A stretch of 64,000 nucleotides of DNA from Blastocatellia bacterium. GTDB lineage: Bacteria > Acidobacteriota > Blastocatellia > RBC074. The position numbers and the translations under genes were made by a program. Numbering within the stretch: position 1 is the stretch's first letter; every line of letters starts with the position of its first letter. This document shows, in pieces, positions 6,503-51,099 of this stretch. The stretch spans positions 15,682 through 79,681 of the forward strand of contig DAOLKO010000010.1 in NCBI GenBank assembly GCA_035331565.1, written 5' to 3'. Under the pieces are notes generated by a model. It was not told the DNA's origin, ran no database searches, and worked only from the letters and a program-made list of their open reading frames with translations.

Positions 6503-6753
<251 letters not shown>

Positions 6754-6763
6754 GCGGGTCTCC

Positions 6764-7246
6764 TTATACGGTTAGGTCGTTCTCGGACTTCATCTCGACG
6801 GCGGTTTGTAAAAGTCGCTCAAACACGGCGGCGGTAGTGGCAGCCACGACCGAGACAAAAATCATCAAAAGGCCAATCATCACACCGCCTGCAATGTCCT
6901 CCTTACCGCGCTGAACGATAAAGAAGAAAGCTTCTGCCCCCACAATAAAAGCGATCAGGATCAGCGCGCAGTATTTGATCGTCCGCAAGGCTTTCACCGC
7001 GTGTGGCGAAAAGACCTCATTGGCTCCGATGTAACTCAATAGCTTGAAGGCTTGATAAAGCGCGACGAAAAAGGCAATCGAAGCCGTGTAGGCATACACC
7101 AGGAAGGGATCTTTGAAGTAAATCTCAAAGGGTGTGGCGTGCGCATTTCTGCCCTCAAGGTGAGGTTCCCAAAGCATCAGGGCAAGAGCGCCGATACCGA
7201 TAACCACGATGACGATCTGAAGAAATATCGTTGAGCTTCGTTTCAT
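6764..7246 (-). CDS. DUF2975-like integral membrane protein (four predicted TM helices), the usual partner of YozG-type HTH proteins.
   Basis: 160-aa hydrophobic product. It lies 10 nt upstream of the HTH gene on the same strand. Confidence 0.55.
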   Translation of the reverse strand: MKRSSTIFLQIVIVVIGIGALALMLWEPHLEGRNAHATPFEIYFKDPFLVYAYTASIAFFVALYQAFKLLSYIGANEVFSPHAVKALRTIKYCALILIAFIVGAEAFFFIVQRGKEDIAGGVMIGLLMIFVSVVAATTAAVFERLLQTAVEMKSENDLTV

Positions 7247-7607: not shown

Positions 7608-8753
7608 TCAACACCTCATCATTAAGCTTGTCAACAAAGCGGCACGACGCGGAATATCGGCCAGCAGAATATGTTCATGTTCCGCGTGTGCGCCATCGCC
7701 GTCTACCCCAAGTCCGTCCAACACGGGCACTCCACAAGCAGCAATGAAATTGGCATCGGAACCGCCTCCGACACTGGCTTCGCGCAAATCAAAACCGAGT
7801 TCGGCAGCAAGTTGTCGCGCTTGTTCATACAATGCCAAATTACCGGCTGAACGTGGCATGGGCGGACGATCAAGACCGCCCTCGATGATAAGTTGTGCAT
7901 CTGGCAAAACGGCAGTGAGCGAATTGATTTGCGCGGCAATGGCATCCCACGCCGCCGGTGTTTGAAAGCGAATATCAATGCGGGCTGAGGCTTCTGCCGG
8001 AACTACGTTGGACGTTGTGCCGCCTTGCGTAACGCCCACGTTGATCGTCGTACCGTGCGAATTGTCATTCATCGCTGCGAGTCGCAACGTTTGATGCGCG
8101 AGTTCGACAACTGCATTGACGCCTTTGGTTGGATCGAGTCCGGCGTGCGCAGCGCGTCCGATGACACGCAGCGTGAAATCCGCAATGCCTTTGCGCCCGA
8201 TCTTGACGATACCGCCGGGCAATGGAGGCTCTAACACCAGCGCAGCAACCGCCTGGCACGCTTCGTCTTCGAGCAACACGCGCGAAGTCGCGCTCCCGAC
8301 TTCTTCGTCACAAGTGAGCAACAGTGCGATGGGATGCGCGGTCGGTTGACGATGGCTGATGAGCCGGCGCAAGGCTTCGACGATGACGGCGATACCCGCT
8401 TTCATATCGAACACACCTGGGCCGTGAATCGCGCCTTCGGTCGTTACGCGAAACGGCAATCGCGCCAGCGTCCCGACCGGCCAAACCGTATCGAGATGAC
8501 CGACGATCAGCAATTGCTTTTCGTCCGCACGATGGTTGCCGCGCCAACGCGCCAGCAGATTGGTGCCTGCGGAATCGTGACGAAACAACGTGATTTCCAT
8601 TCCGATCTCGCGCAGTTCCGCCGCGACGAATTGCGCCAGCGCATCCAGGCGCGCGCCGTCACCCGATGGCGATTCGTATTCAACCAGCGTGCGCAACCGT
8701 TCGAGAATGACGGGTTGTTGCGTAGTGAAATGTTTCAGCAAATCTTCAGCCAT
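7608..8753 (-). CDS. M20-family metallopeptidase or N-acyl-amino-acid deacylase (carboxypeptidase G2/ArgE/DapE-like).
   Basis: HLDTVWPVG, GPGVFDMKAG, the EE pair (CDEEVGS) and C-terminal GGSDANF motifs are typical of M20 dimetallohydrolases. Confidence 0.8.
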   Translation of the reverse strand: MAEDLLKHFTTQQPVILERLRTLVEYESPSGDGARLDALAQFVAAELREIGMEITLFRHDSAGTNLLARWRGNHRADEKQLLIVGHLDTVWPVGTLARLPFRVTTEGAIHGPGVFDMKAGIAVIVEALRRLISHRQPTAHPIALLLTCDEEVGSATSRVLLEDEACQAVAALVLEPPLPGGIVKIGRKGIADFTLRVIGRAAHAGLDPTKGVNAVVELAHQTLRLAAMNDNSHGTTINVGVTQGGTTSNVVPAEASARIDIRFQTPAAWDAIAAQINSLTAVLPDAQLIIEGGLDRPPMPRSAGNLALYEQARQLAAELGFDLREASVGGGSDANFIAACGVPVLDGLGVDGDGAHAEHEHILLADIPRRAALLTSLMMRC

Positions 8754-8756
8754 AAT

Positions 8757-9869
8757 TCAGCGCTTGAACGTTTCGCGTCGCACAGTCAGGCGTTCGATCA
8801 AATCTTCGCGCACGCGATAGCCAATGCCTTCGCTTGCCGGCAATTCGATCATGCCTTGCGGCGTCACAGTGACCTCCGGTTCAATAATGTCTTCGTGCCA
8901 ATAGCGCGCCGAAGCCGACACATCGCCGGGCAACGAAAACCCTTGCAACGAAGACATGGCAATGTTGTGCGCACGTCCGATGCCTGCTTCGAGCATGCCG
9001 CCACACCAAACCGGAATGCCGTTATCCAAACAATGTTGTTGAATGCGCCGCGCTTCGCTGTGACCGCCGACACGACCGAGCTTGATGTTGATGATGCGGC
9101 AGGACTGATGCGCAATGGCTTTGCGGGCGTGCGCAAGGCTCAAAATGGATTCGTCCAGGCAGAGCGCTGTTTTCAGTTGTCGTTGCAACACAGCGTGATC
9201 GTGCAAGTCATCATCGGCCAGCGGCTGTTCGATCATCAGCAGATTGAATTCATCCAGTTGTTGCAATGTCGCCAGATCGTCCAATGAATAAGCGGTGTTG
9301 GCGTCCACGGACAAACGAATGCCGGGAAATTGCTCACGAACTTTGGCCACAAAAGCGACATCGCTGCCCGGTTTGATTTTGAGTTTGATGCGGCGATATC
9401 CGGCGGCGAGTTCAGCCGCTACGCGCTCGACCATTAGTTCCGGTGTCGCGCGCAACCCCAATGACACGCCGCATTCGATTTGCGTGCGCGTTCCGCCAAG
9501 CATTTGCCAGAGCGGTTTATTCGCTAACTTTGCCTGCAAATCCCAACAAGCGGTTTCCAATGCGCCCTTTGCCATACGATGTCCGCGCACTGGCGCAAAA
9601 GCCTCGAACACGTCTTCCGCCTTCGTGGGATTGCCTTGCCAAAACAGCGGAATCAAATGTTGTTGCAACGCGAGCCACGCGCCATCAATCCATTCGGCGC
9701 AATAGTAAGGCTCTTCCGGCGCGGTGCATTCGCCCCACCCCGTCGCGCCGCTGCGATCAATAACCTGCACGAGCAGAATGCGACGCTCGGTGGTCAGATC
9801 AACGCTGGTCTGAAAGGGTTCACGCAACGGCAGGCGAATTTCACGCAAGACAATTCGTTCAACGTTCAT
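8757..9869 (-). CDS. Enolase-superfamily enzyme of the MR/MLE subgroup: N-succinylamino acid racemase / o-succinylbenzoate synthase-like.
   Basis: KIKPG...RLSVDANTAY...MIEQPL...CLDES are the metal-ligand and catalytic-Lys motifs. A 4-nt gap separates it from the M20 gene. Confidence 0.75.
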   Translation of the reverse strand: MNVERIVLREIRLPLREPFQTSVDLTTERRILLVQVIDRSGATGWGECTAPEEPYYCAEWIDGAWLALQQHLIPLFWQGNPTKAEDVFEAFAPVRGHRMAKGALETACWDLQAKLANKPLWQMLGGTRTQIECGVSLGLRATPELMVERVAAELAAGYRRIKLKIKPGSDVAFVAKVREQFPGIRLSVDANTAYSLDDLATLQQLDEFNLLMIEQPLADDDLHDHAVLQRQLKTALCLDESILSLAHARKAIAHQSCRIINIKLGRVGGHSEARRIQQHCLDNGIPVWCGGMLEAGIGRAHNIAMSSLQGFSLPGDVSASARYWHEDIIEPEVTVTPQGMIELPASEGIGYRVREDLIERLTVRRETFKR

Positions 9870-38550: not shown

Positions 38551-38726
38551 GGGGACAGCCTCCTCTTCTACTGCCGGCAGTCGGCATCGAACGAACGTGG
38601 TATATCAATAGTTCTGAGAGTGATAGTCGCCGCACGATGATATGCATTCACCCTCAAAAGGCAATTGCGCCAAGCAGCTTTTACAAGAAAGCAGCGATAG
38701 CTCTATGTTGTTGTGAGTGGTAAAAG

Positions 38727-38770
38727 AATGGGCTTGGCTGGACTCGAACCAGCGGCCTACTGCTTAGGAG
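38727..38770. repeat. attL-like 44-nt direct repeat, identical to the 3' half of tRNA-Arg at 51024-51067.
   Basis: aatgggcttggctggactcgaaccagcggcctactgcttaggag is present at both sites. The sequences diverge immediately afterwards. Confidence 0.8.
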
Positions 38771-38937: not shown

Positions 38938-40068
38938 ATGCCAAGACAACGGACTGGTTACGTTTGGTACTGGAAAGAACGCAAATCCTGGTATGCCCGC
39001 CTGACCTTCACGGATGCCAGCGGCAAACGGCGCAATGTCTGCCGCTCCGTCGAAAACAAAACCGAAGGCAACAAACTGCTCAAACAATTGATCCGGGATT
39101 TGGAAGATAACGGCGAGAAAGCGTTGGATTCCGAAAAGCTGACCTTTCGCCAACTCGCCAAGCTTTACTCCGACCGCAAACTTATCGCCGCTGAATATCA
39201 AGGTGACACGAAAGTGCGCGGATTGCGCTCGCATAAAAACCAGCAAGGGTATCTGAAAACACTGGTTGACCATTTCGGCGGGCTGCGCGTGCGCGCCATC
39301 ACGCACAGCGACCTGGAAGATTACCGAGCCAAACGATTGCAAACCATAACCCGACGAGGCGCGCAACTCAGCGCGGCCAGCGTCAACCGGGAATTAAGCC
39401 TGATGCGCGCGGTTTTGAATTTTGCCCGGCGACAAGGCTGGCTCAGCCGAAATCCTTTTGATGCGGGCGATCCGGTTATCAAACCCGCCGACGAAGTGAA
39501 GCGCGAGCGCGTGTTGACGTTTGAAGAAGAAGGGCGGTTGTTACTGGCTTGCGCTGCACCGCGCGAACATTTGCGCCCGATGCTGATTTTCGCGCTTGAT
39601 ACCGGCTTGCGGAAATCCGAAATGCTGGCTTTGCGCTGGGCCGACGTTGACCTTGAATCCGGGATGATTCGCGCGCGTAGCTCGACCACCAAGACGCGCA
39701 AAGCCCGAACTATAGGTATGACTTCGCGCCTGAAAGCCGAGCTTGAGCGAATGCGAGAGTCGGCGGGCGATGATCCTGAATCGCGCATCTTCAACCAGAA
39801 AGACATGAAGCGCTCCTTTGCGACGGCTTGCGAACTGGCCGGTGTTGAAAACCTGCACTGGCACGACCTGCGCCACACCGCGACAACGCGAATGGTTGAA
39901 GTCGGCCTTGCGCCGATGATTGTCATGAAGCTGACCGGCCATACTCAGATGGCAACCTTTGCCCGCTACGTCAACGCCAACGATGAAGCGGCGACCAAAG
40001 GCGCGGAAGCTCTCGACGCTTACCGGCAAAACGCTCTCGGCGAAAGCACGCCGGAGAGAATCAACTGA
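38938..40068 (+). CDS. int: Tyrosine-type site-specific integrase.
   Basis: C-terminal HDLRHTATTRMVEVG...ATFARYVN carries the R-H-R-Y catalytic signature. It is adjacent to the att repeat. Confidence 0.85.
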   Translation: MPRQRTGYVWYWKERKSWYARLTFTDASGKRRNVCRSVENKTEGNKLLKQLIRDLEDNGEKALDSEKLTFRQLAKLYSDRKLIAAEYQGDTKVRGLRSHKNQQGYLKTLVDHFGGLRVRAITHSDLEDYRAKRLQTITRRGAQLSAASVNRELSLMRAVLNFARRQGWLSRNPFDAGDPVIKPADEVKRERVLTFEEEGRLLLACAAPREHLRPMLIFALDTGLRKSEMLALRWADVDLESGMIRARSSTTKTRKARTIGMTSRLKAELERMRESAGDDPESRIFNQKDMKRSFATACELAGVENLHWHDLRHTATTRMVEVGLAPMIVMKLTGHTQMATFARYVNANDEAATKGAEALDAYRQNALGESTPERIN

Positions 40069-40175
40069 AACGGCTTCGGCTCGCCTTACGCCTGATTAGC
40101 TACCCGGCGGACAGCGGTGAAACCTTCGCTCCGTTGGAGAGCCGAAAACACGAAGGACACCTGGAAGGGGAGACA

Positions 40176-41450
40176 ATGCAAAATGAGCAAGAGTTTCGTC
40201 AGATCATAGAAAGGATTGATGAAGTGACGCGGGCGCTTTTGCAAGTAAGGGATTACAAGGCGGAGGCGATTGACCTTAATGGTGCAGACGCTCCTTTGAA
40301 ACTTCTAGCGCGAACTTGGCGGGACACTCAGTTACCAAGTCAGTCTGATGAAAAGCTCGCCAATATGATACGGCAGCGGTTAGAGGAAACATTATCTCCA
40401 ATCTTGTGGATTGCTACGGGACAAATAGTTTCTGGTGCGCTCGAATACGCTACGCGCGAAACTGGGGCAACCGTAATGCCCACCTTTGATGGACTTTCAA
40501 GGGTGGGCATAGCTGAGCAACCATATTCCGAAGATGAAGAAGAGGTTTGGTTGATTGGTTTAGCGGAGAGAATACGAATAAAAGGAACGCTTCAGGTGAG
40601 CCTAAATTGGGGAGAGATTGAATCTATTCTTGATGATTTTTTTGGCTCGTCTCTTTCAGCGTGTAAAACTGAGCAAGAAGCAAAAACGGCTTGGAATAGC
40701 TTTCTCAAGAAGGAGCAAAAGCACCTCAAAAAAAGAATGGGGGATTCACCGGTAGAAAAAATCGTAGAGACCAACCGGAAGGTTGAAATGCTGACGGATA
40801 AACAAAGAGAGCAGATGCGAAGCGATCTGGTAAAACTCGCTTCGCAAAACTTCAAATTAAACATAGATCACGTTATTCGTTGTGCTATTGCGGCCAATCT
40901 GTTCTTGAGCCTGGTGTATTGGGAATACGCTTTTGATCGTGAAAAAGGAAGAGCCGAGAAGGAAGTTCAGCAATCACTGCCCGGAGTAGAAGAACTAAGA
41001 GACATAATAGGTAAGAGATTGAATGACTGGCTTATTCAACCGCTTCCAAAAAGACCGCGCCTAGGTAAACAAGCAAAAGCTGATTTAAGCCAACTGCGCC
41101 AGTTTTACGAGGAAGTTATTGGGGATTGGCGTGATGCCTTTAGCTTCTGTCGTGAGGCTCTCAATTCTCGTTCAGCAACCCGCCGTGCAACTTGGAAAGA
41201 AGACCTCAAAAAATACTATCCCAGTCTGCGAGATTACGACGATTTGATTGAGCGGCTACAGCCCATAGAGAACTGGCCAGAGCAGGTAGCTGCGAAATGT
41301 TCAGAGCAGGGGGGCGAGGATAAGCCTGAAGACATCGCTTACGAACATGCTGCACGACTATGCGACGCAGCCAATTACACGTACAAGCTGTCTTCGCTTA
41401 TTGAGGAATACCGCAAGCAAGGGCGACAAAAAAAAGAAGAAAAAGAATGA
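40176..41450 (+). CDS. Island-encoded hypothetical protein (~425 aa, acidic, AT-richer).
   Basis: ORF with a GGAGA RBS before ATG 40176. No recognisable domain. Confidence 0.45.
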   Translation: MQNEQEFRQIIERIDEVTRALLQVRDYKAEAIDLNGADAPLKLLARTWRDTQLPSQSDEKLANMIRQRLEETLSPILWIATGQIVSGALEYATRETGATVMPTFDGLSRVGIAEQPYSEDEEEVWLIGLAERIRIKGTLQVSLNWGEIESILDDFFGSSLSACKTEQEAKTAWNSFLKKEQKHLKKRMGDSPVEKIVETNRKVEMLTDKQREQMRSDLVKLASQNFKLNIDHVIRCAIAANLFLSLVYWEYAFDREKGRAEKEVQQSLPGVEELRDIIGKRLNDWLIQPLPKRPRLGKQAKADLSQLRQFYEEVIGDWRDAFSFCREALNSRSATRRATWKEDLKKYYPSLRDYDDLIERLQPIENWPEQVAAKCSEQGGEDKPEDIAYEHAARLCDAANYTYKLSSLIEEYRKQGRQKKEEKE

Positions 41451-41665: not shown

Positions 41666-41896
41666 ATGTCCCAAGTGTCTTTTGAAGCCAACACCAGCCC
41701 AAAACAACCAATCCTCGAAACCGCTGTCTACGGGCGCGACGAGGCAATCGCTATCACCGGCTTTTCGCTCTCGACGCTGATCCGCGCCGAAGAGAAAGGA
41801 AAGCTGCGAGGTCGCTACGAAGGCCGTCGCCGATTTTATTTCGGGCGCGATCTGCTGCGCTGGCTGGGAGCCTGCGAGGAAGGAGGTGCGGAGTGA
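41666..41896 (+). CDS. AlpA/excisionase-like small HTH DNA-binding protein.
   Basis: 76-aa product. DEAIAITGFSLSTLIRAEEKGKL is an HTH resembling phage AlpA/Xis. Confidence 0.55.
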   Translation: MSQVSFEANTSPKQPILETAVYGRDEAIAITGFSLSTLIRAEEKGKLRGRYEGRRRFYFGRDLLRWLGACEEGGAE

Positions 41897-42195
41897 AGTC
41901 AAAAAACCAAAAGCCGCCAGCGGCGGGAATCGCTGACGGCTCTCGAAATCGAACTAAAAATTACGAGCCGGATTCTGCCACGCTGCGCCGACAAACGGCA
42001 ACAACAAATTTGCCGGAGTGCCCGTGTCCCGTATGCGCGCGCAGTTATCGTTACGCATGGGGCTGGTTGATGGTGCTGCCGACGGCGCGAGTCGTTGACC
42101 TGTGCGCGTATTGCACGCGCACTTTGCGCTACGGCTCAGCGTCGGAGCGTCAGGCAATTGCCGACGCGATTGCAACGCGGGAGGTGGCACTATGA
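41893..42195 (+). CDS. Small Cys-rich protein (putative zinc-ribbon).
   Basis: CPCPVC...CAYCTR is a four-Cys arrangement. Its stop overlaps the primase ATG (ATGA). Confidence 0.35.
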   Translation: MKSKNQKPPAAGIADGSRNRTKNYEPDSATLRRQTATTNLPECPCPVCARSYRYAWGWLMVLPTARVVDLCAYCTRTLRYGSASERQAIADAIATREVAL

Positions 42196-44801
42196 ACAGG
42201 CTTGATTACGCGAAAGACTATCAAGGCAGGGGCTACACGCCTCTGCCGCTTCCACTCAAGGCGAAGAATCCAGGTTTTCATGATTGGCAGAAATACCAGC
42301 CGGTTAATGGCCGGCTTGAGCGTGATTTCAGCAACGAAGGCAACATCGGGTTGCTACTCGGCAAACCGTCGGGCTGGCTGATTGACGTGGATTTGGATTG
42401 GCCGGAATCGCAAAGGCTCGCGTCTGCTTTCCTGCCTGAAACGACAGCCAAAAGCGGGCGTGAATCCGCGCCGCTGTCGCATTACTGGTATCACTGCGAA
42501 ACCGGAACGAAGAAGTTCAGCGATCCGACCAAGCCGGGCGGCGACGACCAGCGCGCGATGATTGTCGAGCTTCGGTCAACGGGATTGCAGACGGTTGTCG
42601 AGCCAAGCATTCATCCGTCTGGCGAGCGGTACGTCTGGCAAGGCGAATTGATGCCCGCGCAAATTGACGCTGCAACGCTTCAACGCGCGGTTGCGCGGTT
42701 GGCGGCGTGTGCGCTTGTCGCTCGACATTGGCCGCAAGGCCGCCGACACGATGCGGCGCTGGCGTTGGCCGGTGCGCTGTTTCGCAACGCCTGGGCGCGC
42801 GCCGATGTCGAGCGGTTCATACTGTCGGCGGCTGGTGTGGCGGGCGATGAAGAAATCGAAGACCGCAAACGCGCCATTGCCGACACGGAAGAAAAGCTCC
42901 GCAGAGGCGAACACGTGACCGGCTTGCCAACCTTGTCGGAGTTCATCGGCGAAAAGACCGTCGGCGCGCTGGTCAAATGGTTAGGGCTGACAGCCCAGCC
43001 GGAAAAGCCTGCCGAAGCGATAAGCAATCAATCACGCGAGCCGGTTGCCTGCCCTTACAAAGCCAACGGCATCGGCCTGGTGTGGCTGAAGCCCGTCGCC
43101 ACAAGAGACGGCGCGGCGGAGCCGCTTGCCGTTCAGCTTACCAACTTCATCGCCGAAATCACTGGCGAAGTGTGCCGCGATGATGGTGCGGAGCAAACGC
43201 GGGTTTATGAGATTACGGCGCAGCTTGCGGGCGAAACCGCTTCGCACAAAGGCGCAGTCGTTGCCGAAGAGTTCGGCCTTTTGAAATGGCCCGCCACGAT
43301 TTTGGGCGCAAGGGCTGTCATCTATCCGAGCAAAAAAGAGCATACCGGCGTAGCGATTCAACTCTTGTCGCGCAAGATCGAAAGCCGTCGTGTCGTGGCT
43401 CATACAGGCTGGCGCAACGATGGCAACGGCTGGCGTTATTACCACGCGGCGGGCGCAATCGGCGCGGAAGGACTGATTGACGCCGAAGTTGAGTTGCCGA
43501 CTGCGCTGGCGGCTTATTCATTGCCTGCGCCGCCAGTGGGCGAAACGCTGAAGGATACAGTATCGGCAGTCATTGGGCTGGCCGGTGTGGGGCCGGATGA
43601 TGTGACGCTGCCCACGTTGGGCGCAGTTTGGGCAAGCGTGCTGACGGGCGCGGATTTTTCTATTTATCTAGCCGGGCGCACAGGCAGCGGGAAAAGTATT
43701 TTGACGGCGCTCTTTCTGTCCTTGTTCGGCTCCGGCTTTGACTTCAACGCGCTGCCCGCGTCGTGGTCTTCAACCGGCAACAGCCTGGAATCGTTGGCGC
43801 ACGCGGCAAAAGATTGCGTGTTAGCCGTTGACGATTTTTGTCCGCAAGGTTCGGCGGCAGACCAAGCGCGATTGCAGGCAGCGGCGGATAGAATCTTCCG
43901 CGCACAAGGCAACCATTCCGGGCGATTGCGTTGCCGGACAGACGGAACGGTCAGAGCGGTCAAACCGCCGCGCGGTCTGATTCTCTCGACCGGCGAAGAT
44001 ATTCCGCACGGCCAGAGCCTGCGCGCTCGCACGCTCATCCGCGAAGTCGTCAGGGAGTCGTTGGACTGGCCAGCCATCACAGAGGCGCAAGCAATCGCTC
44101 GGCAAGGCGTTTACGCGCAAGCAATGGCCGCTTTTCTGCAATGGCTGGCGACTGGCGACCGAATCGAAAAGCTTCGAGCATCTGCGCCGGATGATGTTTC
44201 GCGCTGGCGCGAAGAATGGACAACGCGCGGTCTGAATGGTCACAAGCGCAATGCGTCAACGCTGGCTCAATTGGCGCGCGCCTGGCATTGCTGGCTCGGT
44301 TTTGCCTGTGAAGCCGGAGCCATCACGCCCGAAGAGAGCAAGAAGCTCTGGCGGCGCGTGTGGGCTGCGCTGGATGCGGCGGGCAAAGGGCAGGAGCAAT
44401 ATCAGGCGAGCGAGAATCCGGCTTCCCGCTTCATTGAATTGATTCAAGCTGCGCTGGCCAGCGGCAAGGCTCATCTGGCGGCGACAGACGGCGGTAAGCC
44501 GGATTCTGCCGATGCGCAAGCTTTTGGCTGGCGCGATGGCGAACCGCAAGGGGAACGAATCGGATGGCTTGACGGCGACGACCTGTATTTGCAACCGGAT
44601 GCGGCCTATTTATTGGCTCGGCGAATGGCGACAGATGGCGAAGGGCTGACCGTGTCGAGCCAAACGCTGTGGAAACGACTCAACGAAGCCGGGTTGCTGG
44701 CTTCGACTGATACGGCGCGAAAGACCAATAAAGTCCGCAAAACAATCGCCGGAAAATCTAATCCGGTGATTCATCTGCGGTCGGAAATTTTCGCCGGGTA
44801 G
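42192..44801 (+). CDS. Replication protein: N-terminal bifunctional primase-polymerase-like domain plus a central P-loop NTPase (D5/DUF3987-like).
   Basis: Start at ATG 42192 after GGAGGTGG. The N-terminus YTPLPLPLKAKNPGFHDWQKY...GLLLGKPSGWLIDVDLD is Prim-Pol-like. Walker A is AGRTGSGKS and Walker B LAVDDF. Confidence 0.65.
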   Translation: MNRLDYAKDYQGRGYTPLPLPLKAKNPGFHDWQKYQPVNGRLERDFSNEGNIGLLLGKPSGWLIDVDLDWPESQRLASAFLPETTAKSGRESAPLSHYWYHCETGTKKFSDPTKPGGDDQRAMIVELRSTGLQTVVEPSIHPSGERYVWQGELMPAQIDAATLQRAVARLAACALVARHWPQGRRHDAALALAGALFRNAWARADVERFILSAAGVAGDEEIEDRKRAIADTEEKLRRGEHVTGLPTLSEFIGEKTVGALVKWLGLTAQPEKPAEAISNQSREPVACPYKANGIGLVWLKPVATRDGAAEPLAVQLTNFIAEITGEVCRDDGAEQTRVYEITAQLAGETASHKGAVVAEEFGLLKWPATILGARAVIYPSKKEHTGVAIQLLSRKIESRRVVAHTGWRNDGNGWRYYHAAGAIGAEGLIDAEVELPTALAAYSLPAPPVGETLKDTVSAVIGLAGVGPDDVTLPTLGAVWASVLTGADFSIYLAGRTGSGKSILTALFLSLFGSGFDFNALPASWSSTGNSLESLAHAAKDCVLAVDDFCPQGSAADQARLQAAADRIFRAQGNHSGRLRCRTDGTVRAVKPPRGLILSTGEDIPHGQSLRARTLIREVVRESLDWPAITEAQAIARQGVYAQAMAAFLQWLATGDRIEKLRASAPDDVSRWREEWTTRGLNGHKRNASTLAQLARAWHCWLGFACEAGAITPEESKKLWRRVWAALDAAGKGQEQYQASENPASRFIELIQAALASGKAHLAATDGGKPDSADAQAFGWRDGEPQGERIGWLDGDDLYLQPDAAYLLARRMATDGEGLTVSSQTLWKRLNEAGLLASTDTARKTNKVRKTIAGKSNPVIHLRSEIFAG

Positions 44802-44805
44802 GGGT

Positions 44806-45065
44806 CTAGTGGAGAAAACCCGACAAACCCGACATTTGGGCAAAAACGGTTTCAATGTCGGGTTTTCGTTGTCGGGTTTTTCGGAGAATCTGGCGAAAAT
44901 GCCGAAAATGCGGCCACAGAAACTAAGTCCCTTCAATAGTTTACCAATCAATGTCGGGTTTGTCGGGTTTTCTCCACATAAGAGCGGTCTGGGATAAATT
45001 CCAGGCGTTCAATGTCGGGTAGGCTTCAAAAAGCCGACACCAAAACCCGACAAAAACCGACAAGG
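44806..45065. repeat. Iteron-like block with at least 10 copies of the CCGACA/TGTCGGG heptamer in both orientations.
   Basis: Representative copies are aaacccgacaaacccgacattt, caatgtcgggttttcgttgtcgggttttt, caatgtcgggtttgtcgggtttt, caatgtcgggtaggc and gccgacaccaaaacccgacaaaaaccgacaagg. Confidence 0.6.
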
Positions 45066-45082
45066 AATAGGGAGCGGGCAAA

Positions 45083-45493
45083 ATGGGAAACGAGATTTTG
45101 ATTGAAATTGAGAGGCTTTCCACAAAGCAACAACGAGCGATTGAAGCGTTGTTGACCGAGCCAACAACGCGCGCAGCGGCGGCTGCGGCAGAGGTCTCCG
45201 AAGCAACAATCTGGCGCTGGCTGGCGGAGCCGGAATTTTCTATTGCGTATCGTGCGGCGCGTGGGCGCTTGCTGGAATCCACGTTGACGGCGTTGCAATC
45301 GGCCAGCGTGGATGCCGTGGTTTGTTTGCGCGAAATTCTGAACGACAAAACTGCGCAGGTTTCCGCTCGCGTCAGCGCGGCCAAGTCGGTTCTGGAACTC
45401 GGATTGAAGGCGCGCGAAGTTCTGGAAGTTGAAGAGCGGCTGGCTTACCTGGAAAAGGCGTTGGAACTCAAAAACGCAAAGAGGAGTGCATGA
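45083..45493 (+). CDS. HTH-domain protein (regulator or terminase-small-subunit-like).
   Basis: AAAAAEVSEATIWRWL HTH followed by a coiled-coil C-terminus. Confidence 0.4.
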   Translation: MGNEILIEIERLSTKQQRAIEALLTEPTTRAAAAAAEVSEATIWRWLAEPEFSIAYRAARGRLLESTLTALQSASVDAVVCLREILNDKTAQVSARVSAAKSVLELGLKAREVLEVEERLAYLEKALELKNAKRSA

Positions 45494-45993
45494 CGACTGC
45501 AAGAAGACTTTCGGCGATGGAGCCGCTGATTGAACCCGAACGAGCATTGCTTCGCCATAACCGGGCAATTCTGCTGTCGGCAATTCCCGAAGTGATGGCC
45601 AAGCTCGGAAAGACCGAAGAAGAGGCGCGGCGGCTTTTGTTGCTACTCTGGTCGCCTGAAGAAGCGGCGCTGGCGGCGGATGATTGGGAAATCAATCCGC
45701 TGGCGCTGGACTTGCTCAAGAAGCTGAATCAGCCCAACGGACGGCAGAAGCTCATCGAATCGGGCTTGCAACGGGGAGCGGATGCGTTTGGCCTGAGTGT
45801 TGAAGATTTGATTTGTCTGGTTTGCCTTGACCCGCGTAACTCTCTGGCGTCCAAGCTGGAACTGGTCAAAATCGCCAACGAACGGAAGATGCCCGCAATC
45901 CTTTTGAAGCTTCACGGCGAAAATCCGGTTGAACGGATAGACCGCCTTGCAGATAGTGTGGCTAATCACGTTGTAGATGACCTGACTGGATGA
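45490..45993 (+). CDS. Island hypothetical protein.
   Basis: ORF coupled to the upstream gene by an ATGA overlap. Confidence 0.35.
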   Translation: MTTARRLSAMEPLIEPERALLRHNRAILLSAIPEVMAKLGKTEEEARRLLLLLWSPEEAALAADDWEINPLALDLLKKLNQPNGRQKLIESGLQRGADAFGLSVEDLICLVCLDPRNSLASKLELVKIANERKMPAILLKLHGENPVERIDRLADSVANHVVDDLTG

Positions 45994-46100
45994 CGAATCG
46001 CCGGGCACGACCAGCCCCGCCAAACTGTAGAATTTTTCTTGCCTCAGCCCGCGATGCGGCATAGACTCCGCGCGTCATCAAACGATGCTCCCCCCGCGTC

Positions 46101-47027
46101 TTGCCAAAGCCCTTAAATAGCTTAGCTATGGAAAACTATAACTATGCGGCTATCCTCCTCGGATTAGCATCCTGTTATTTCTTCCTGTTTCTGGTGCCCT
46201 TTTCAATTTCCTGCATAATTATTTATTGGATTCAACCTCTGTCCCGAAATGCATTTCTGCTCGTCTCGCTCTTACCTTGTTTAGCAGGAACACTATTGAC
46301 GCAGGATTGGAAGTTGGAGGCAGCTATAGTTTTCGCATTGTTCCAATTCAGCATCATAGGTTTCCTGGAATTGTGGATGCTGTTTTTGTTTTTCCGAAAA
46401 TTGATCAAGCCACCAATAACATATATGTCAACACCACCTTTACCAACAACACAATTAAAAGAACCGATTCCGCCAGATTTCGATTTTGAATTTTGGAAGG
46501 ATCGGCTAATTGATCGCACCATCAGAAGCTACCTATCAGACACGCAAAAGCAACAATTGAACGACCTTCGCTTAAGTGATACTCAGCGGGATCAGATTAA
46601 GTACGGCACAAGGCCGCCCCAAGAGATAAATGATTTTTTGGAAGATGCAATAAAAGATGTCGAAGTTGCGGTCACTAACGACGACGGTGAAGCCTTGCGA
46701 AAGGCTATTGAACAAGCTCATCAGAAACTTACAAAATTTGAATCAGAGAGGGTAAAGAGAAGCAACGAGTTCCTTAATAAGCTTACAAATTCGTTTCGCC
46801 GAGCGAATGGTGCTCCTATAGTTTTTGTTGGCTTATTCATAATTGCTTTCGGGTTCTTGTTTTCAAGAGGATATAGCCAATCTATGGGAGTCTTGGGAAG
46901 CTTGCCGCGTATGGTTGTGGACGTCGGCAACCTCAGCATTGCAACCAAATGGGTATTACTTTTTGGGATTGGGCTGTGCCTTTGGGGATTTTACGCGCGT
47001 TTTAGTGATACTCAGAAGAATAACTAA
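46101..47027 (+). CDS. AT-rich integral membrane protein of unknown function.
   Basis: Four N-terminal TM helices, a central charged coiled region, and two C-terminal TM helices. The DNA is strongly AT-rich. Confidence 0.45.
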   Translation: MPKPLNSLAMENYNYAAILLGLASCYFFLFLVPFSISCIIIYWIQPLSRNAFLLVSLLPCLAGTLLTQDWKLEAAIVFALFQFSIIGFLELWMLFLFFRKLIKPPITYMSTPPLPTTQLKEPIPPDFDFEFWKDRLIDRTIRSYLSDTQKQQLNDLRLSDTQRDQIKYGTRPPQEINDFLEDAIKDVEVAVTNDDGEALRKAIEQAHQKLTKFESERVKRSNEFLNKLTNSFRRANGAPIVFVGLFIIAFGFLFSRGYSQSMGVLGSLPRMVVDVGNLSIATKWVLLFGIGLCLWGFYARFSDTQKNN

Positions 47028-47030
47028 AAC

Positions 47031-47849
47031 TTGTTCAGAGGGTTCGCTCTAATGATCAATATGGATACTAAGCAGCTAAAAACTATGTTTTGGAGCTTGG
47101 CATTAGGCGCATGCGGTTTCTGGATTTGGCTTAACCAAGGCGGAAATCCTATGCCTGATTTCTATTTACTAGATGATGCGGTTATTGCCAAAGGGTATAT
47201 TGTTGAAATTACTGAGAGTGCTGGTGAAGAGGGCGACAGTACTTTTACCGCCGAATATCAATTTAAGCTTCCTGACGGTCGAGAGTTAACTAATCGAACA
47301 GACAAGTTTGATGAAGAAATCATCGAACAAAAAATGCCATATCCCATTGAAATTGAATATTACAAAGCTAATCCAGAAATCAACAGGATCAATGGAACTG
47401 GAAGTCGCACATTTACAGAGTGGCTTTGGCGAAGTTTAGGAGGAGGAGTTGTTTTGCTCGCATTATGCTTAAGTCCAAGCATCTGGTTATTCCGATGCGG
47501 TTGGCAGGACATGAGACAAAAACGCGAAATTAAAAGCCGGAAATTGAGAAAAGCTCAGAAGAAAGCGGCCAAGCGACTGGTGAAAGGAGCGGCGGAGGCT
47601 GCGCAGCTAACCTCTATACAGCAGGAAGCCTCACAGATGGCCGATACGCCGACCAACATTCAGATACCGGATCGGGAGCAATTTCCGCCGGGTATTCTGG
47701 GGGATAGTATGTATCGGATGTCTGCTGACCGTGTGCGAAAGTTGTTGGCGAGGGAGGCCAAAAGGGCGGCGAAGGCTACGAAGCCTACGCAACAAGTTAC
47801 TCAAGCGGATGCAGATGAGACAACGTCAAATAACTTCAAAACCAGGTAA
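47031..47849 (+). CDS. AT-rich membrane protein with a DUF3592-like topology (TM, beta-domain, TM, then a Lys/Ala-rich tail).
   Basis: TM1 WSLALGACGFWIW, then a ~100-aa soluble domain, then TM2 LGGGVVLLALCL, then a basic tail. Confidence 0.4.
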   Translation: MFRGFALMINMDTKQLKTMFWSLALGACGFWIWLNQGGNPMPDFYLLDDAVIAKGYIVEITESAGEEGDSTFTAEYQFKLPDGRELTNRTDKFDEEIIEQKMPYPIEIEYYKANPEINRINGTGSRTFTEWLWRSLGGGVVLLALCLSPSIWLFRCGWQDMRQKREIKSRKLRKAQKKAAKRLVKGAAEAAQLTSIQQEASQMADTPTNIQIPDREQFPPGILGDSMYRMSADRVRKLLAREAKRAAKATKPTQQVTQADADETTSNNFKTR

Positions 47850-48358
47850 TAACTTGAACTTTTCTTGCTGACTTGCCTACTGGCGCTCAATTGGCGCAAT
47901 GTGGGAGTGCTTACCATACCAGCTAATCCGCATGTAGAATCTGTCAAGCGAATAGTCGCCCACTGACCGGCAACCGCGAGGCAGCGCAAATTCGCCCAAC
48001 GAAAAGCCGCTCGACTTTTGCTGGGTGGTCTTTGTTTTGTCATTTCTCTTTGGCTCAATATGCGTTTCTGGGAGCTATACCTAAAGCAACCGTTTGAAGC
48101 TCTGATTCTTAAGGACTTATGTCGCTAGTCAAAGACTCGCTCCTTGAAACAGCTATTGAGCCTTCTCTTTTCCTTCACAGCCTCGACTCCGGCGGCTTTT
48201 CCCTTGCCTTATCATCCACCCCCAACGCTTTCAACACGCGCTCAAACTACGCGTTATTGCTTTCCCATTTAGTGAAGTTTGTGACCGAGGGGCTTTCGGG
48301 TTTTCAGCAATGGTCACCAATAGCGGCAAGCAAGATAATGTCTCAGCCTATAGCGATT

Positions 48359-48904
48359 TCAGGCGTAGGCAAGTTCGGATTCCAGCCGGTAAGAGTAGCG
48401 CGCCGGTTTGTGCGGATTGACCAGTAAAGCCATCGCATCCGATCTTTGCAGGACGATGGCGGCGAGTTGGTCGGCGACGTGGGCGGGAATGGCGCGGCCT
48501 TGCTTTTCCGCTAGTAGGTAAAAATACATCAGCCGCATCAGCGAATCGGCTTGCGGGCCGATGGTCTGCCCGCCATTTTCCCACCGTGAAAGTGTGGCCG
48601 TGTCTATGTGAAGGTAGGCCGCCCATTCCTTCGCCTTCAATCCCAAATGTTGGCGGAGAAAGCGAGCTTCTTTGCCGGACAGCGGCTGACTCTGCAACGC
48701 GATGGCCTGGCCGATGGTGGCGTGCAAATCGTTGATGCGGGGAATGCGCGGAGCAACCTCGCCGCAAGCTTCGCAGACGCGCACGTCAATGTTTTCCAGG
48801 TAAACGTTATCCAATCCGCATTCGGTATAGTGGTAGCGTTGCTCACGTTTGATGACCGTCTCGGCTTTGCACATTTCGCATTTCATAGTTTGTTGCTCCA
48901 TCAA
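48359..48904 (-). CDS. MqsA-like antitoxin: N-terminal YgiT-type zinc ribbon plus C-terminal XRE HTH.
   Basis: CEMCKAE...CEACGEV is the Zn ribbon. LSGKEARFLRQHLGLKAKEWAAYLHIDTATLSRWENG is the HTH. Confidence 0.65.
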   Translation of the reverse strand: MMEQQTMKCEMCKAETVIKREQRYHYTECGLDNVYLENIDVRVCEACGEVAPRIPRINDLHATIGQAIALQSQPLSGKEARFLRQHLGLKAKEWAAYLHIDTATLSRWENGGQTIGPQADSLMRLMYFYLLAEKQGRAIPAHVADQLAAIVLQRSDAMALLVNPHKPARYSYRLESELAYA

Positions 48905-49206
48905 AAAACCGTCACGATGTAGAGCGTCATGTCTGATTCGATAATCAATGTAATGGCGATCAATTCATCGCCGTCAATGTCTTCGCCTTCGACGCGATAT
49001 TTCCAGTTGCTGTAAACGTCGTCCCATTCCGGCGCGCGGCGAATCTGGCCAAGTTTTAACGCATTGACCACATCCAGCATTGTTACGCCGCGCTTCGGCA
49101 TTGATTCGCGGCGGCAGTGAAACGAAAGCTCCACCGTGCCATCGTTGAGAATGACCAGAATCTTGTCTTTGGCTTCATCGGCGGAAAACGGATTCGGCTT
49201 GCTCAT
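48901..49206 (-). CDS. DUF4258-family toxin partner.
   Basis: 101-aa product located upstream of and overlapping the antitoxin by ATGA. Composition is GVTMLDVVNALKLGQI...LIAITLIIESDMTLYIVTVF. Confidence 0.5.
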   Translation of the reverse strand: MSKPNPFSADEAKDKILVILNDGTVELSFHCRRESMPKRGVTMLDVVNALKLGQIRRAPEWDDVYSNWKYRVEGEDIDGDELIAITLIIESDMTLYIVTVF

Positions 49207-49357
49207 TGGTTCACTCTGTTTGCCTGCGTTGCTCCCAGTGTCTTTACGCTTCTCTACGTTTCCATAGTTGGCAGCTTAGCAAGACTTGACAATATGTCAA
49301 TTGATGGATTGGCCGCCCAGTCACTGACCGGGCGGCGTTATAAGGTGAATTTCCGGC

Positions 49358-49918
49358 TTATGTCAGCGGCTGAATGCGGGCAATCAAGGCGTCGAGTTTG
49401 GCCGCGTCGTTTCCTTCCGTGGCTTTTCTCGCTGCGATCTTACCGACGACCAGCGCGCTGAAATTGGCCAGCGTCTGGCGCTTCGCCGCGCGCCATTCCT
49501 TCGCCGACAAATAGCAGCAATACGGCTCGCGCTCCCTTCCCTGCTCATCGTAGAAGCGAAGATTGACGCGAAAACCGGCATCCGCCAACCGCACGCGAAA
49601 TGACATCCTTGAACCGGCTTTGACCGTCCAGGATTCCTGTCCGTTCCGGCGCGATTCTCGGATTTCCAGTTTTGGAAGCTTTGTTGCTGCATTTGTTGGC
49701 CTTCCGTTTTTTTTCGGGCTAGCCCGACTTGGCGCGTTTTTGTCGTCAATTTTCGCTGGTTTCGGGCTAGCCCGGCTTTCGGCTCTCGGGGTTGGCGTCG
49801 AGACTCGCGCCGATGATGTGACCGGCGACGGCGGGGCATCCGTCTCGGTCAGGGCAGGGGCATCATCAGCGCCGGTCAGTTTCCCCTTTCTTGTCCCGTG
49901 ACATCTTTGCCAGGCCAC
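49358..49918 (-). CDS. Island hypothetical protein.
   Basis: ORF whose start overlaps the end of the upstream membrane-protein gene. Confidence 0.3.
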   Translation of the reverse strand: MAWQRCHGTRKGKLTGADDAPALTETDAPPSPVTSSARVSTPTPRAESRASPKPAKIDDKNAPSRASPKKNGRPTNAATKLPKLEIRESRRNGQESWTVKAGSRMSFRVRLADAGFRVNLRFYDEQGREREPYCCYLSAKEWRAAKRQTLANFSALVVGKIAARKATEGNDAAKLDALIARIQPLT

Positions 49919-50691
49919 GTTACGGGCGGCTTCGATTGTTGCCGGGCAAGCAAAGCTTCGTCTTCGGCGATCTTCCGTCGCGCTTCGTCTACGTCGTGGC
50001 TGTCAATCTGGCCGACGATCTGCGCCGCGCGGTCAATTGCCGCCTTTGTCGCCATTCGTTTGACGGCGGCTTTCACTTCCGGCGCGTCAATCCCTTCGCG
50101 GTATGCGCCGATGATCTGTTCGCGCTGTTCGCGTTGAATCTGCCGCCATTGCGCGTTGTATTCGGATTCGGCTTCGAGCGTGGCAATCCGCTCCTGTGAA
50201 TCCGGGTGCAAGTCGAGCAGCCATTTCCACAAATAGGGAACGGCGACAATCGAAAGCGGCAGGATATACCGCACATAAAAGAGCAGGGGCGCGGGCAGTT
50301 CGGATGAGCCGAACCAGCCGCCGTCACTGTAACCGATGGCAAATTGCGCCAGCGTGTTGATGGCCAGCACTCCCCAGACGCCAAACGAGGCGATGAAGCC
50401 CAGCCGCCGCTGTTCGCTGCCCTTGAAGAAATACAAGCGGCCAAGCGTCAGGCCGATGGCTGTTCCTTCGAGCAGGACGACCGGCAGCCAGCTTGCCACG
50501 TCGAGCCAGTCCGCGTAGAGCTTGCTGCCTTTCATTCCATTGTAGGCCAGACCGTGTGTCTGAATGGCGGTGACGATCACGCCGACGGCGATCATCAGCC
50601 AACTGATGACCATTCCCAGCCCGTTGCCGGACTTCTCGACGGAATCAGAAATGCGCTTGGCGCGCTGTTGGTATTTGTCAAAATCTTTCAT
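49876..50691 (-). CDS. Island membrane protein (five or six TM helices plus a coiled-coil C-terminus).
   Basis: Start at ATG 50691 (MKDFDKYQQ) preceded by GGAG. The core is hydrophobic. Confidence 0.4.
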   Translation of the reverse strand: MKDFDKYQQRAKRISDSVEKSGNGLGMVISWLMIAVGVIVTAIQTHGLAYNGMKGSKLYADWLDVASWLPVVLLEGTAIGLTLGRLYFFKGSEQRRLGFIASFGVWGVLAINTLAQFAIGYSDGGWFGSSELPAPLLFYVRYILPLSIVAVPYLWKWLLDLHPDSQERIATLEAESEYNAQWRQIQREQREQIIGAYREGIDAPEVKAAVKRMATKAAIDRAAQIVGQIDSHDVDEARRKIAEDEALLARQQSKPPVTWPGKDVTGQERGN

Positions 50692-51025
50692 GGTTGCTTT
50701 CTCCATTGGTTGAGGAGTGCTAACCTTACTTTGCGAAAGGCTGTTAGCACTTCGGTGTTGATAGTTGTCCGGGCTTGTGGAGAGTTGACGCTTTCCGCAA
50801 GCCCTTCGCATTTAAGAAAGAATAATTCAGCCGGAGGGAACATTGGCCCTGAAACCAAAATTCCACCAGCCTTTTTTCGCGTTTGGAATAGACGAGAGAG
50901 TTCAGAGGTGAAGACACCGAAAAATGTGATTTTGGTGGCGTATGTGTTACGGAACGTGTTACGAAGGGTATAAAAAGAAAAAAGCTTGGCGCTAGAAGTT
51001 GCGCTAAGCTCTTTAGAATCAATAA

Positions 51026-51099
<74 letters not shown>

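Follow-up and report, generated by a model that had tools for sequence, protein, structure and literature searches.

The question raised by this locus is what two adjacent, AT-rich genes for membrane proteins, here called ORF1 and ORF2 (open reading frames 1 and 2), contribute to the mobile element that carries them. The genes lie in a 64,000-nt stretch from a Blastocatellia bacterium (GenBank assembly GCA_035331565.1, contig DAOLKO010000010.1, positions 15,682 to 79,681 of the forward strand), which as a whole we call the window and whose first letter is position 1 of the coordinates below. An earlier reading of the letters, referred to here as the original prediction, had taken the pair for cargo of an integrase-bearing island and likened it to abortive-infection or superinfection-exclusion modules. 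We found that ORF1 and ORF2 form a horizontally acquired membrane cassette in an accessory slot of an element that is bounded by attachment (att) sites, sits at a tRNA-Arg gene and resembles the phage-inducible chromosomal islands (PICI). That the cassette gives envelope-level protection, either as phage exclusion or as abortive infection, is a reading of the genomic context to which we assign a probability of roughly 0.35, and the pair is a candidate rather than a demonstrated defense system.

The limits of the element are set by a 47-nt direct repeat (family D1) whose copies, 98% identical, enclose 12.3 kb and reproduce the 3′ part of tRNA-Arg(CCT), and a tyrosine integrase gene lies at the attL end (Table 1), so that the predicted integrase-bearing island is indeed present. 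A query with the Prim-Pol protein of the element retrieved two related islands in other metagenome-assembled genomes (MAGs), with 89-90% protein identity and 86-87% identity of the Prim-Pol gene at the nucleotide level. One of them, L004 (CADECP010000025.1), sits beside tRNA-Phe and the other, L005 (JAJNQA010000015.1), beside tRNA-Met, neither being at tRNA-Arg. By blastn, the similarity to L005 extends over window positions 41682-46105, ending a few bases from the open frame of ORF1, and then over 49359-50691; the similarity to L004 extends over 41878-45067 and then over 49803-50813. Because similarity to both islands breaks off by 46105 and resumes after 49359, we regard the segment between these positions as a replaceable cargo slot, and the view of the pair as island cargo holds, since the slot differs between the related islands. 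In L004 and L005, too, the slot is GC-poor (0.48-0.50 vs 0.60), and its products there are uncharacterized secreted, lipoprotein, zinc-ribbon and GYF_2/DUF2569 membrane proteins, among which PADLOC found only STK_OB, a weak OB-domain match (E = 1.2e-4) of a 125-aa protein of L005. The contig of L005 is labeled ‘Heliomicrobium sp.’ (Firmicutes), yet its island matches Acidobacteria MAGs, a disagreement that may reflect mis-binning of the contig or transfer of the island.

Base composition sets the pair apart in the window. The guanine-plus-cytosine (GC) content of positions 46128-47849 is 0.437 vs a window mean of 0.556 (z = -3.4), which makes this the lowest-GC of all 1.7-kb segments, with 0.12% of segments equal or below, and at third codon positions (GC3) the value is 0.44 in both ORF1 and ORF2 vs 0.59-0.70 in the backbone and flanking genes. 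ORF1 as a whole has a GC content of 0.42, and the low-GC block stops within ORF2, where the core (0.41) gives way to the tail (0.52). The claim that the pair is far more AT-rich than both the chromosome and the rest of the island was therefore right for the window, in which its GC content is lowest, but overstated for the island, where a 438-aa ORF directly after the integrase is comparable (GC 0.46). Outside the island, the second-lowest value (0.46) belongs to the segment 1026-2747, which covers the ORFs 877-2052 and 2049-2681, and in L004 and L005 the slot matching the position of the 438-aa ORF (about 8000-9500) is likewise low in GC. Accessory genes of PICI lie either between the integrase and the regulator/primase module or after terS (PMC10085698), and the two AT-rich segments fit these positions because one follows the integrase and the other the TerS-like module; anti-phage systems are concentrated in such hotspots of satellites and prophages (PMC9122126). 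The element is PICI-like by its gene order, the TerS assignment being a weak one; no capsid-morphogenesis gene was identified in the element, and we infer its status as a satellite from gene content only.

Both genes are present, adjacent and on the forward strand, as the original prediction had them, at slightly smaller sizes. Its lengths of 308 and 272 aa count from TTG codons, whereas the likely starts are ATG 46128 and ATG 47052, which give products of 299 and 265 aa. For ORF2, we favor the upstream start at ATG 47052 because the homologs align from about residue 6, including the first transmembrane helix (TM1) and an invariant GNP motif, and an AGAGGG resembling a Shine-Dalgarno (SD) sequence agrees with this choice. 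In the NCBI annotation the gene (PLD20_13915) encodes 232 aa and begins at Met41 (window region 47052-47151), a start that cuts off TM1 and splits the GNP from the rest, so the public ORF2 start is probably an error. For ORF1, the annotated length is 243 aa in one assembly and 299 aa in two others, and no obvious ribosome-binding site precedes the gene. The window is matched at 100% identity by three other assemblies of this population, with no polymorphism over the region. The two genes have one reading frame in common, with a single TAA plus 8 codons between them (47025-47054), and are probably co-transcribed. A single gene expressed by read-through is not favored, ORF2 having its own SD-like site and ATG as well as a full N-terminus that matches its homologs. 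A terminator-like hairpin downstream of ORF2 is a weak candidate for the end of the ORF1-ORF2 transcript, and a scan of the region for promoters and terminators returned a number of sites not above that in shuffled controls.

Turning to the proteins themselves, an exhaustive phmmer search with ORF1 and ORF2 joined as the query against 1.84 billion cluster representatives (cut-off E ≤ 1e-3) yielded 220 hits; of the best 150, all fall on ORF2 save the self hit of ORF1 and P0139. ORF2 has about 220 relatives at this cut-off, the best at 8.7e-28, and the 147 non-self ORF2 hits among the matches listed are 30-42% identical to it, all within ORF2 residues ~6-158. A word-indexed search of 5.8 billion proteins matched ORF2 to itself only. 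When ORF2 was aligned with 61 homologs (alignment A1, 62 sequences), PF12158 (DUF3592) was matched by 26 of the 62, with a best value of 6.5e-7. ORF2 itself was not among them; compared with PF12158 directly, it produced no match even at E ≤ 0.1, and the Pfam gathering score was not reached. The source annotations nevertheless name relatives of ORF2 ‘DUF3592 domain-containing protein’. The subfamily is marked by an invariant GNP after TM1 and by a P-x-P-[IV]-E-[VI]-E-Y block, and every invariant residue is kept in ORF2. Frequently the relatives form the C-terminal part of a longer (membrane) fusion protein, and an ancestral fusion of ORF1 and ORF2 is a possibility. The other domains met in A1 members are an N-terminal DUF6804 (6 of 62; P0004, P0010, P0190, P0203, P0205 and P0214), TPR, pentapeptide and receiver (Response_reg) domains. 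From these comparisons we conclude that ORF2 is a divergent DUF3592-family protein.

The structural model of ORF2 agrees with this assignment. Built with AlphaFold2 (AF2) from alignment A1, it has a mean predicted local distance difference test score (pLDDT) of 86, above 90 across the core, and consists of a helix (6-30), a beta domain (43-113) and helices 121-197, 218-243 and 248-263, giving the layout of a transmembrane (TM) helix, a small beta-rich domain and a second TM helix. The short N-terminus is basic and is followed by TM1 (~residues 6-30), and the long helix 121-197 represents TM2 (from ~121), predicted to run on into the cytoplasm. Foldseek searches with the model (BFVD) found proteins annotated as DUF3592 in giant viruses and T4-like phages (E 3e-6 to 1e-3), including the NrdC.7 type, and sequence searches of the PDB produced no matches. 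The ectodomain (43-113) carries a net charge of -11 and the 118-aa tail one of +13 (A17, R13, K13), so by the positive-inside rule ORF2 is predicted to be N-in/C-in with the beta domain outside; its inner-membrane location is likewise predicted. The tail is unusual because most relatives stop 5-20 residues past TM2. The DUF3592-like arrangement of TM, domain and TM with a Lys/Ala-rich tail, as it had been read from the letters, is thus supported by the A1 matches, the Foldseek hits and the tail composition, and both products are predicted membrane proteins, as had also been proposed.

By comparison, ORF1 comes close to being an orphan. Five TM helices (~6-35, 39-56, 63-92, 228-245 and 271-298) are predicted from its hydropathy and from an AF2 model of low confidence (pLDDT 58; predicted template modeling score, pTM, 0.29), and between the third and the fourth lie a Pro-rich linker (93-119) and a helical region (120-226), which is probably cytoplasmic because basic residues flank it. 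The protein has three S-D-T-Q motifs, two of which (RLSDTQ and RFSDTQ) are encoded by an 18-nt direct repeat inside the gene (46569-46586 and 46998-47015). The word-indexed search returned the self hit only, and a single partial relative appeared among the phmmer matches listed: P0139, a 163-aa protein on a 1.7-kb contig, whose aligned columns are 45% identical to ORF1 and whose similarity is clear in the C-terminal hairpin of two TM helices only. We consider ORF1 a real gene because it is an open frame of 300 codons in DNA of 42% GC and because the hairpin is conserved in P0139. An assignment of ORF1 to DUF6804 was rejected (hhalign probability 0.2%, no Pfam match), and no DUF6804-like ORF was found elsewhere when one was sought in the window.

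The neighborhoods of ORF2 relatives were sampled from 34 metagenome loci and 7 long contigs, which provided ~20 informative contexts. Homologs were not consistently found in non-mobile housekeeping surroundings: integrase, transposase, excisionase or toxin-antitoxin genes occurred in about half of these contexts, and several contained McrBC, AbiD, SoFic, TIR/caspase or PD-Lambda-3_A. The only conserved neighbor family was that of tyrosine integrases (L013, L024 and L038, the last with its integrase beside tRNA-Leu). Among the seven long contexts (L046 to L052; Table 1), four had defense-type neighbors (McrBC, AbiD, SoFic and TIR/caspase), a count from a small sample with no background control. 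PADLOC models were matched by the Abi_2 protein of L052 (AbiD, 6e-80) and the Fic protein of L051 (SoFic, 6e-34), along with several PDC candidates, and among the neighbors in 13 shorter loci there were at least two strong matches (PD-Lambda-3_A, 2e-41; PDC-S64, 9e-48). DUF6804 is a recurrent partner of the relatives, either fused to them (6 of the 62 sequences in A1) or encoded nearby (L048, L050 and L051). The patterns used to scan IMG/VR picked up no relative, and tblastn detected none in a phage collection (50,697 phage records) or a plasmid collection. By its neighborhoods, the ORF2 subfamily looks like accessory or mobile cargo.

How might such a cassette work? ORF2 would be anchored with its N-terminus inside, direct its acidic beta domain towards the periplasm, pass back through TM2 and hold its basic helical tail in the cytoplasm, and ORF1 would cross the membrane five times and have a helical domain in the cytoplasm. 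Together they would give envelope-level protection to the element and to the cell that carries it. In an exclusion mechanism, the outward domain of ORF2 might disturb the DNA-delivery machinery of incoming phages, while in abortive infection ORF2 might sense infection and ORF1 might serve as membrane effector or scaffold, with membrane function collapsing. We suggest a protective role because of the slot, the adjacent toxin-antitoxin pair, the neighborhoods of the relatives, and the precedents of SieA and of satellite hotspots. More doubtful still, in our judgment, is the broader proposal that the GNP-motif DUF3592 subfamily, whether alone, fused to DUF6804 or paired as with ORF1, could be an unrecognized mobile class of envelope protection in environmental bacteria (phage exclusion, abortive infection, possibly toxin immunity), with the basic tail of ORF2 as a lineage-specific output or anchoring domain.

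Several observations weigh against protection. None of the PADLOC models (PADLOC-DB v2) was matched by ORF2 or the 61 relatives in alignment A1, and ORF1 matched only JetA at noise level (E = 0.012, over a coiled-coil stretch). Neither gene had an informative match in Pfam, PHROGs or NCBIfam, and with all four resources negative for the pair the original prediction was correct that no named system can be recognized. The context sample is small (~20 loci) and has no formal background comparison, and it includes chromosomal-looking contexts (L042 with Der and GroEL, L029 with RibD_C, and L031 with beta-lactamase and NamZ). ORF2 relatives recur with DUF6804 as a partner, a family to which ORF1 does not belong; no ORF1-like gene stood beside any ORF2 relative, and the pairing was seen nowhere else. 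In addition, no recognized defense gene is seen in the corresponding slots of L004 and L005, whose products are uncharacterized proteins of the secreted and membrane kinds.

A rival reading, which we consider on the unlikely side, is that the two are accessory envelope proteins with no part in conflict. ORF2 would then resemble other DUF3592 proteins in serving, anchored in the membrane, as a scaffold or a cofactor in envelope biogenesis or in sensing, ORF1 would be an unrelated membrane protein, and both would simply ride on the island and might change the envelope physiology of the host. DUF3592 is a broad family, one mycobacterial member of which is the predicted cofactor of an essential envelope glycosyltransferase, the MptB mannosyltransferase (bioRxiv 10.64898/2026.07.15.738315). 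The fusions of ORF2 relatives to sensory or scaffold domains (Response_reg, TPR and pentapeptide) point the same way, as do the cell-wall enzymes in several contexts (Amidase_3 twice, NamZ and beta-lactamase), the runs of small unknown membrane proteins around relatives (L050, L052 and L021) and the lack of any match to a defense model. However, the pair is foreign in composition and lies in a mobile element, at a slot whose contents are replaceable, the ORF2 subfamily is found repeatedly beside integrases, transposases, toxin-antitoxin pairs and defense genes, and patchiness of this kind, with near-orphan status, would be unexpected for housekeeping scaffolds. It is less probable that the cassette is no functional unit at all, its genes being two unrelated hitch-hikers or the drifting remnants of a longer gene that a nonsense codon has cut in two. 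The common reading frame with its single TAA could be read in this way, although such sharing has a one-in-three chance of arising by itself, and the same may be said of the frequent occurrence of ORF2 relatives as C-terminal modules of longer fusions, of the unconserved pairing, and of the state of ORF1, an orphan with a poor AF2 model and no clear ribosome-binding site; a patchwork origin is also suggested by the break in composition inside ORF2. Against this reading stand two long, intact frames in DNA of 42-46% GC, an ORF2 that has its own SD-like site and ATG, a confident fold and all subfamily-invariant residues, and the conservation of the ORF1 C-terminal hairpin in P0139.

Small membrane proteins are typical immunity factors against membrane-acting toxins, and ORF2, perhaps with ORF1, might accordingly be an orphan immunity protein against membrane-acting or pore-forming polymorphic toxins or bacteriocins of competitors, an explanation that we find improbable. 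Its cargo-like features (mobile, variable and AT-rich) would suit this role, and a DUF3592 transmembrane protein is encoded in the LXG-3 type VII toxin loci of Streptococcus suis (PMC12482557), but its role there is unassigned and this lone link in the literature is an observation of co-location only. No toxin, LXG, Rhs or contact-dependent inhibition (CDI) gene was present near the pair or in the seven domain-annotated long contexts, the other loci not having been searched specifically for toxin domains. Least credible to us is that the cassette serves the life cycle of the satellite, acting on a helper phage or influencing when lysis and release occur instead of protecting from unrelated phages. 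The products are membrane proteins, and in this PICI-like element their genes directly follow the TerS-like module with its link to packaging, which would be in keeping with this idea, but no similarity to holins or spanins was detected in PHROGs, and a core life-cycle function is unlikely because the slot is not conserved among islands that have the same backbone. Envelope-level protection by the cassette is the reading that we prefer on the basis of its genomic context.

The element has further genes and features. The slot also contains a putative type II toxin-antitoxin pair, convergent with ORF1-ORF2 and with overlapping genes, and the element may replicate from an iteron stretch between the Prim-Pol/DUF927 and TerS-like genes, a candidate origin; 28-nt inverted matches to this stretch are present in L004 and L005. 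The TerS-like protein, besides its PHROG matches, matched Pfam HTH_Tnp_1_2 at 1.6e-5, under the gathering score. The protein of the 438-aa ORF appears soluble, helical and charged, its only match being BrxC-helical at noise level (E = 0.019). Of the two backbone genes adjoining attR, one has a membrane-protein product of 271-311 aa whose C-terminus is helical and charged, and the other a product of 82-195 aa according to which start is called (186 aa in the window). Within the island, an Rfam scan identified the tRNA only.

Table 1. Coordinates in the window of the cassette and other features of the element, followed by the long contexts of ORF2 relatives (positions in brackets are those of the respective context).
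Feature	Position	Strand	Description
attL	38724-38770		47-nt copy of the 3′ part of tRNA-Arg; direct repeat
Tyrosine integrase	38938-40068	+	Pfam Phage_integrase (3.5e-26) and Int_N
AT-rich 438-aa ORF	40134-41450		Directly after the integrase; GC 0.46, GC3 0.43
AlpA/excisionase-like helix-turn-helix (HTH) ORF	41666-41896		76 aa; judged by eye
Prim-Pol/DUF927 primase-replicase	42192-44801	+	Pfam PF09250 (2e-11) and PF06048 (1.1e-7)
Iterons (candidate origin)	44852-45022		Four 14-nt iterons (TCAATGTCGGGTTT), 86-100% identical; gap between the Prim-Pol/DUF927 and TerS-like genes
TerS-like HTH protein	45083-45493	+	PHROG small terminase families (9.1e-7 and 3.9e-6)
167-aa ORF	45490-45993		Between the TerS-like gene and ORF1
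Variable cargo slot	46105-49359		ORF1, ORF2, 0.5-kb spacer and toxin-antitoxin pair
ORF1	46128-47027	+	299 aa from ATG 46128; predicted polytopic membrane protein; open frame 46101-47027
SD-like AGAGGG	47037-47042	+	9 nt 5′ of the ORF2 ATG; read from the sequence
ORF2	47052-47849	+	265 aa from ATG 47052; open frame 47031-47849
ORF2 core	47052-47525	+	Divergent DUF3592-family module; GC 0.41
ORF2 C-terminal tail	47526-47849	+	Residues ~148-265; GC 0.52
Terminator-like hairpin and T-rich run	48006-48039	+	~160 nt past the ORF2 stop; consensus scan; weak candidate
Putative type II toxin-antitoxin pair	48359-49206	-	Convergent with ORF1-ORF2; genes overlap
MqsA-like zinc-ribbon/HTH antitoxin	48359-48904	-	Pfam PF15731 (1.8e-7) and HTH_3
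DUF4258 protein	48901-49206	-	Pfam PF14076 (8.7e-7)
Backbone genes adjoining attR	49358-49918, 49876-50811	-	Conserved in all three related islands; no family match
attR and tRNA-Arg(CCT)	51021-51099	-	Repeat 51021-51067 overlapping tRNA 51026-51099; ARAGORN; Rfam tRNA 71 bits
Long context L046			McrBC (0.3 kb away), SNase, transposase
Long context L047			Insertion sequence (IS) element, excisionase-like HTH, integrase
Long context L048			HTH_17, DUF6804 (6656-7021), RelB/ParE
Long context L049			Transposase, caspase, pentapeptide-TIR, ArdC
Long context L050			DUF6804 (7621-7977) immediately upstream; surrounded by small membrane proteins
Long context L051			Fic, RNA ligase, DUF5677, HNH; overlapping DUF6804 downstream (8540-8884)
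Long context L052			Integrase fragment, Toprim/AAA_25, Abi_2

Should the pair turn out to be accessory envelope cargo and nothing else, the finding would be an ordinary one. If, on the other hand, DUF3592 proteins have a role in defense or exclusion, many genes would be annotated at once, the family being very large, and a purely membrane-embedded module would join the list of anti-phage systems; current sets of defense hidden Markov models (HMMs) probably miss such modules because they have no enzymatic domain. In the literature, DUF3592 is without an assigned function, and DUF6804 and PF12158 are not mentioned in its searchable part. With SatelliteFinder, >99.9% of PICI were found in Proteobacteria or Firmicutes (PMC10085698), and the element would extend PICI-like satellites with defense-type hotspots to Acidobacteriota.

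Compared with known systems, the closest likeness of ORF2 is to DUF3592 (PF12158) itself, including the T4-like NrdC.7-type and giant-virus proteins, with which it has the layout of TM, small beta domain and TM in common, while it differs in belonging to a distinct GNP subfamily, in giving no Pfam match and in its 118-aa basic tail, rare among members. The modules of DUF6804 with DUF3592-like proteins resemble the cassette in that a membrane-protein gene directly adjoins a DUF3592-like gene on the same strand, but ORF1 is much larger, has a soluble helical region of ~100-130 aa and is not DUF6804. Among superinfection-exclusion proteins, P22 SieA acts at the inner membrane, where it prevents the injection of DNA (PMC10883804). 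Similar to SieA, ORF2 is a small predicted inner-membrane protein encoded by a mobile element, a likeness without detected homology, given that no PHROG family of known function and no record of the phage collection matches the pair. T4 Imm and Sp and HK97 gp15 are further superinfection-exclusion membrane proteins. Lambda RexAB is a two-gene membrane module for abortive infection, and gp30/gp31 of mycobacteriophage Butters reportedly form a two-gene membrane module as well; with modules of the RexAB type the pair has no homology, yet it is similar to them as a two-gene cassette of a mobile element with a polytopic membrane component. The element as a whole, which is known from its genes alone, resembles PICI- and P4-like satellites with their cargo hotspots in its integrase, AlpA-like HTH protein, primase-replicase, TerS-like gene and 12.3-kb size, and its host here is an uncultured Blastocatellia (Acidobacteriota) bacterium.

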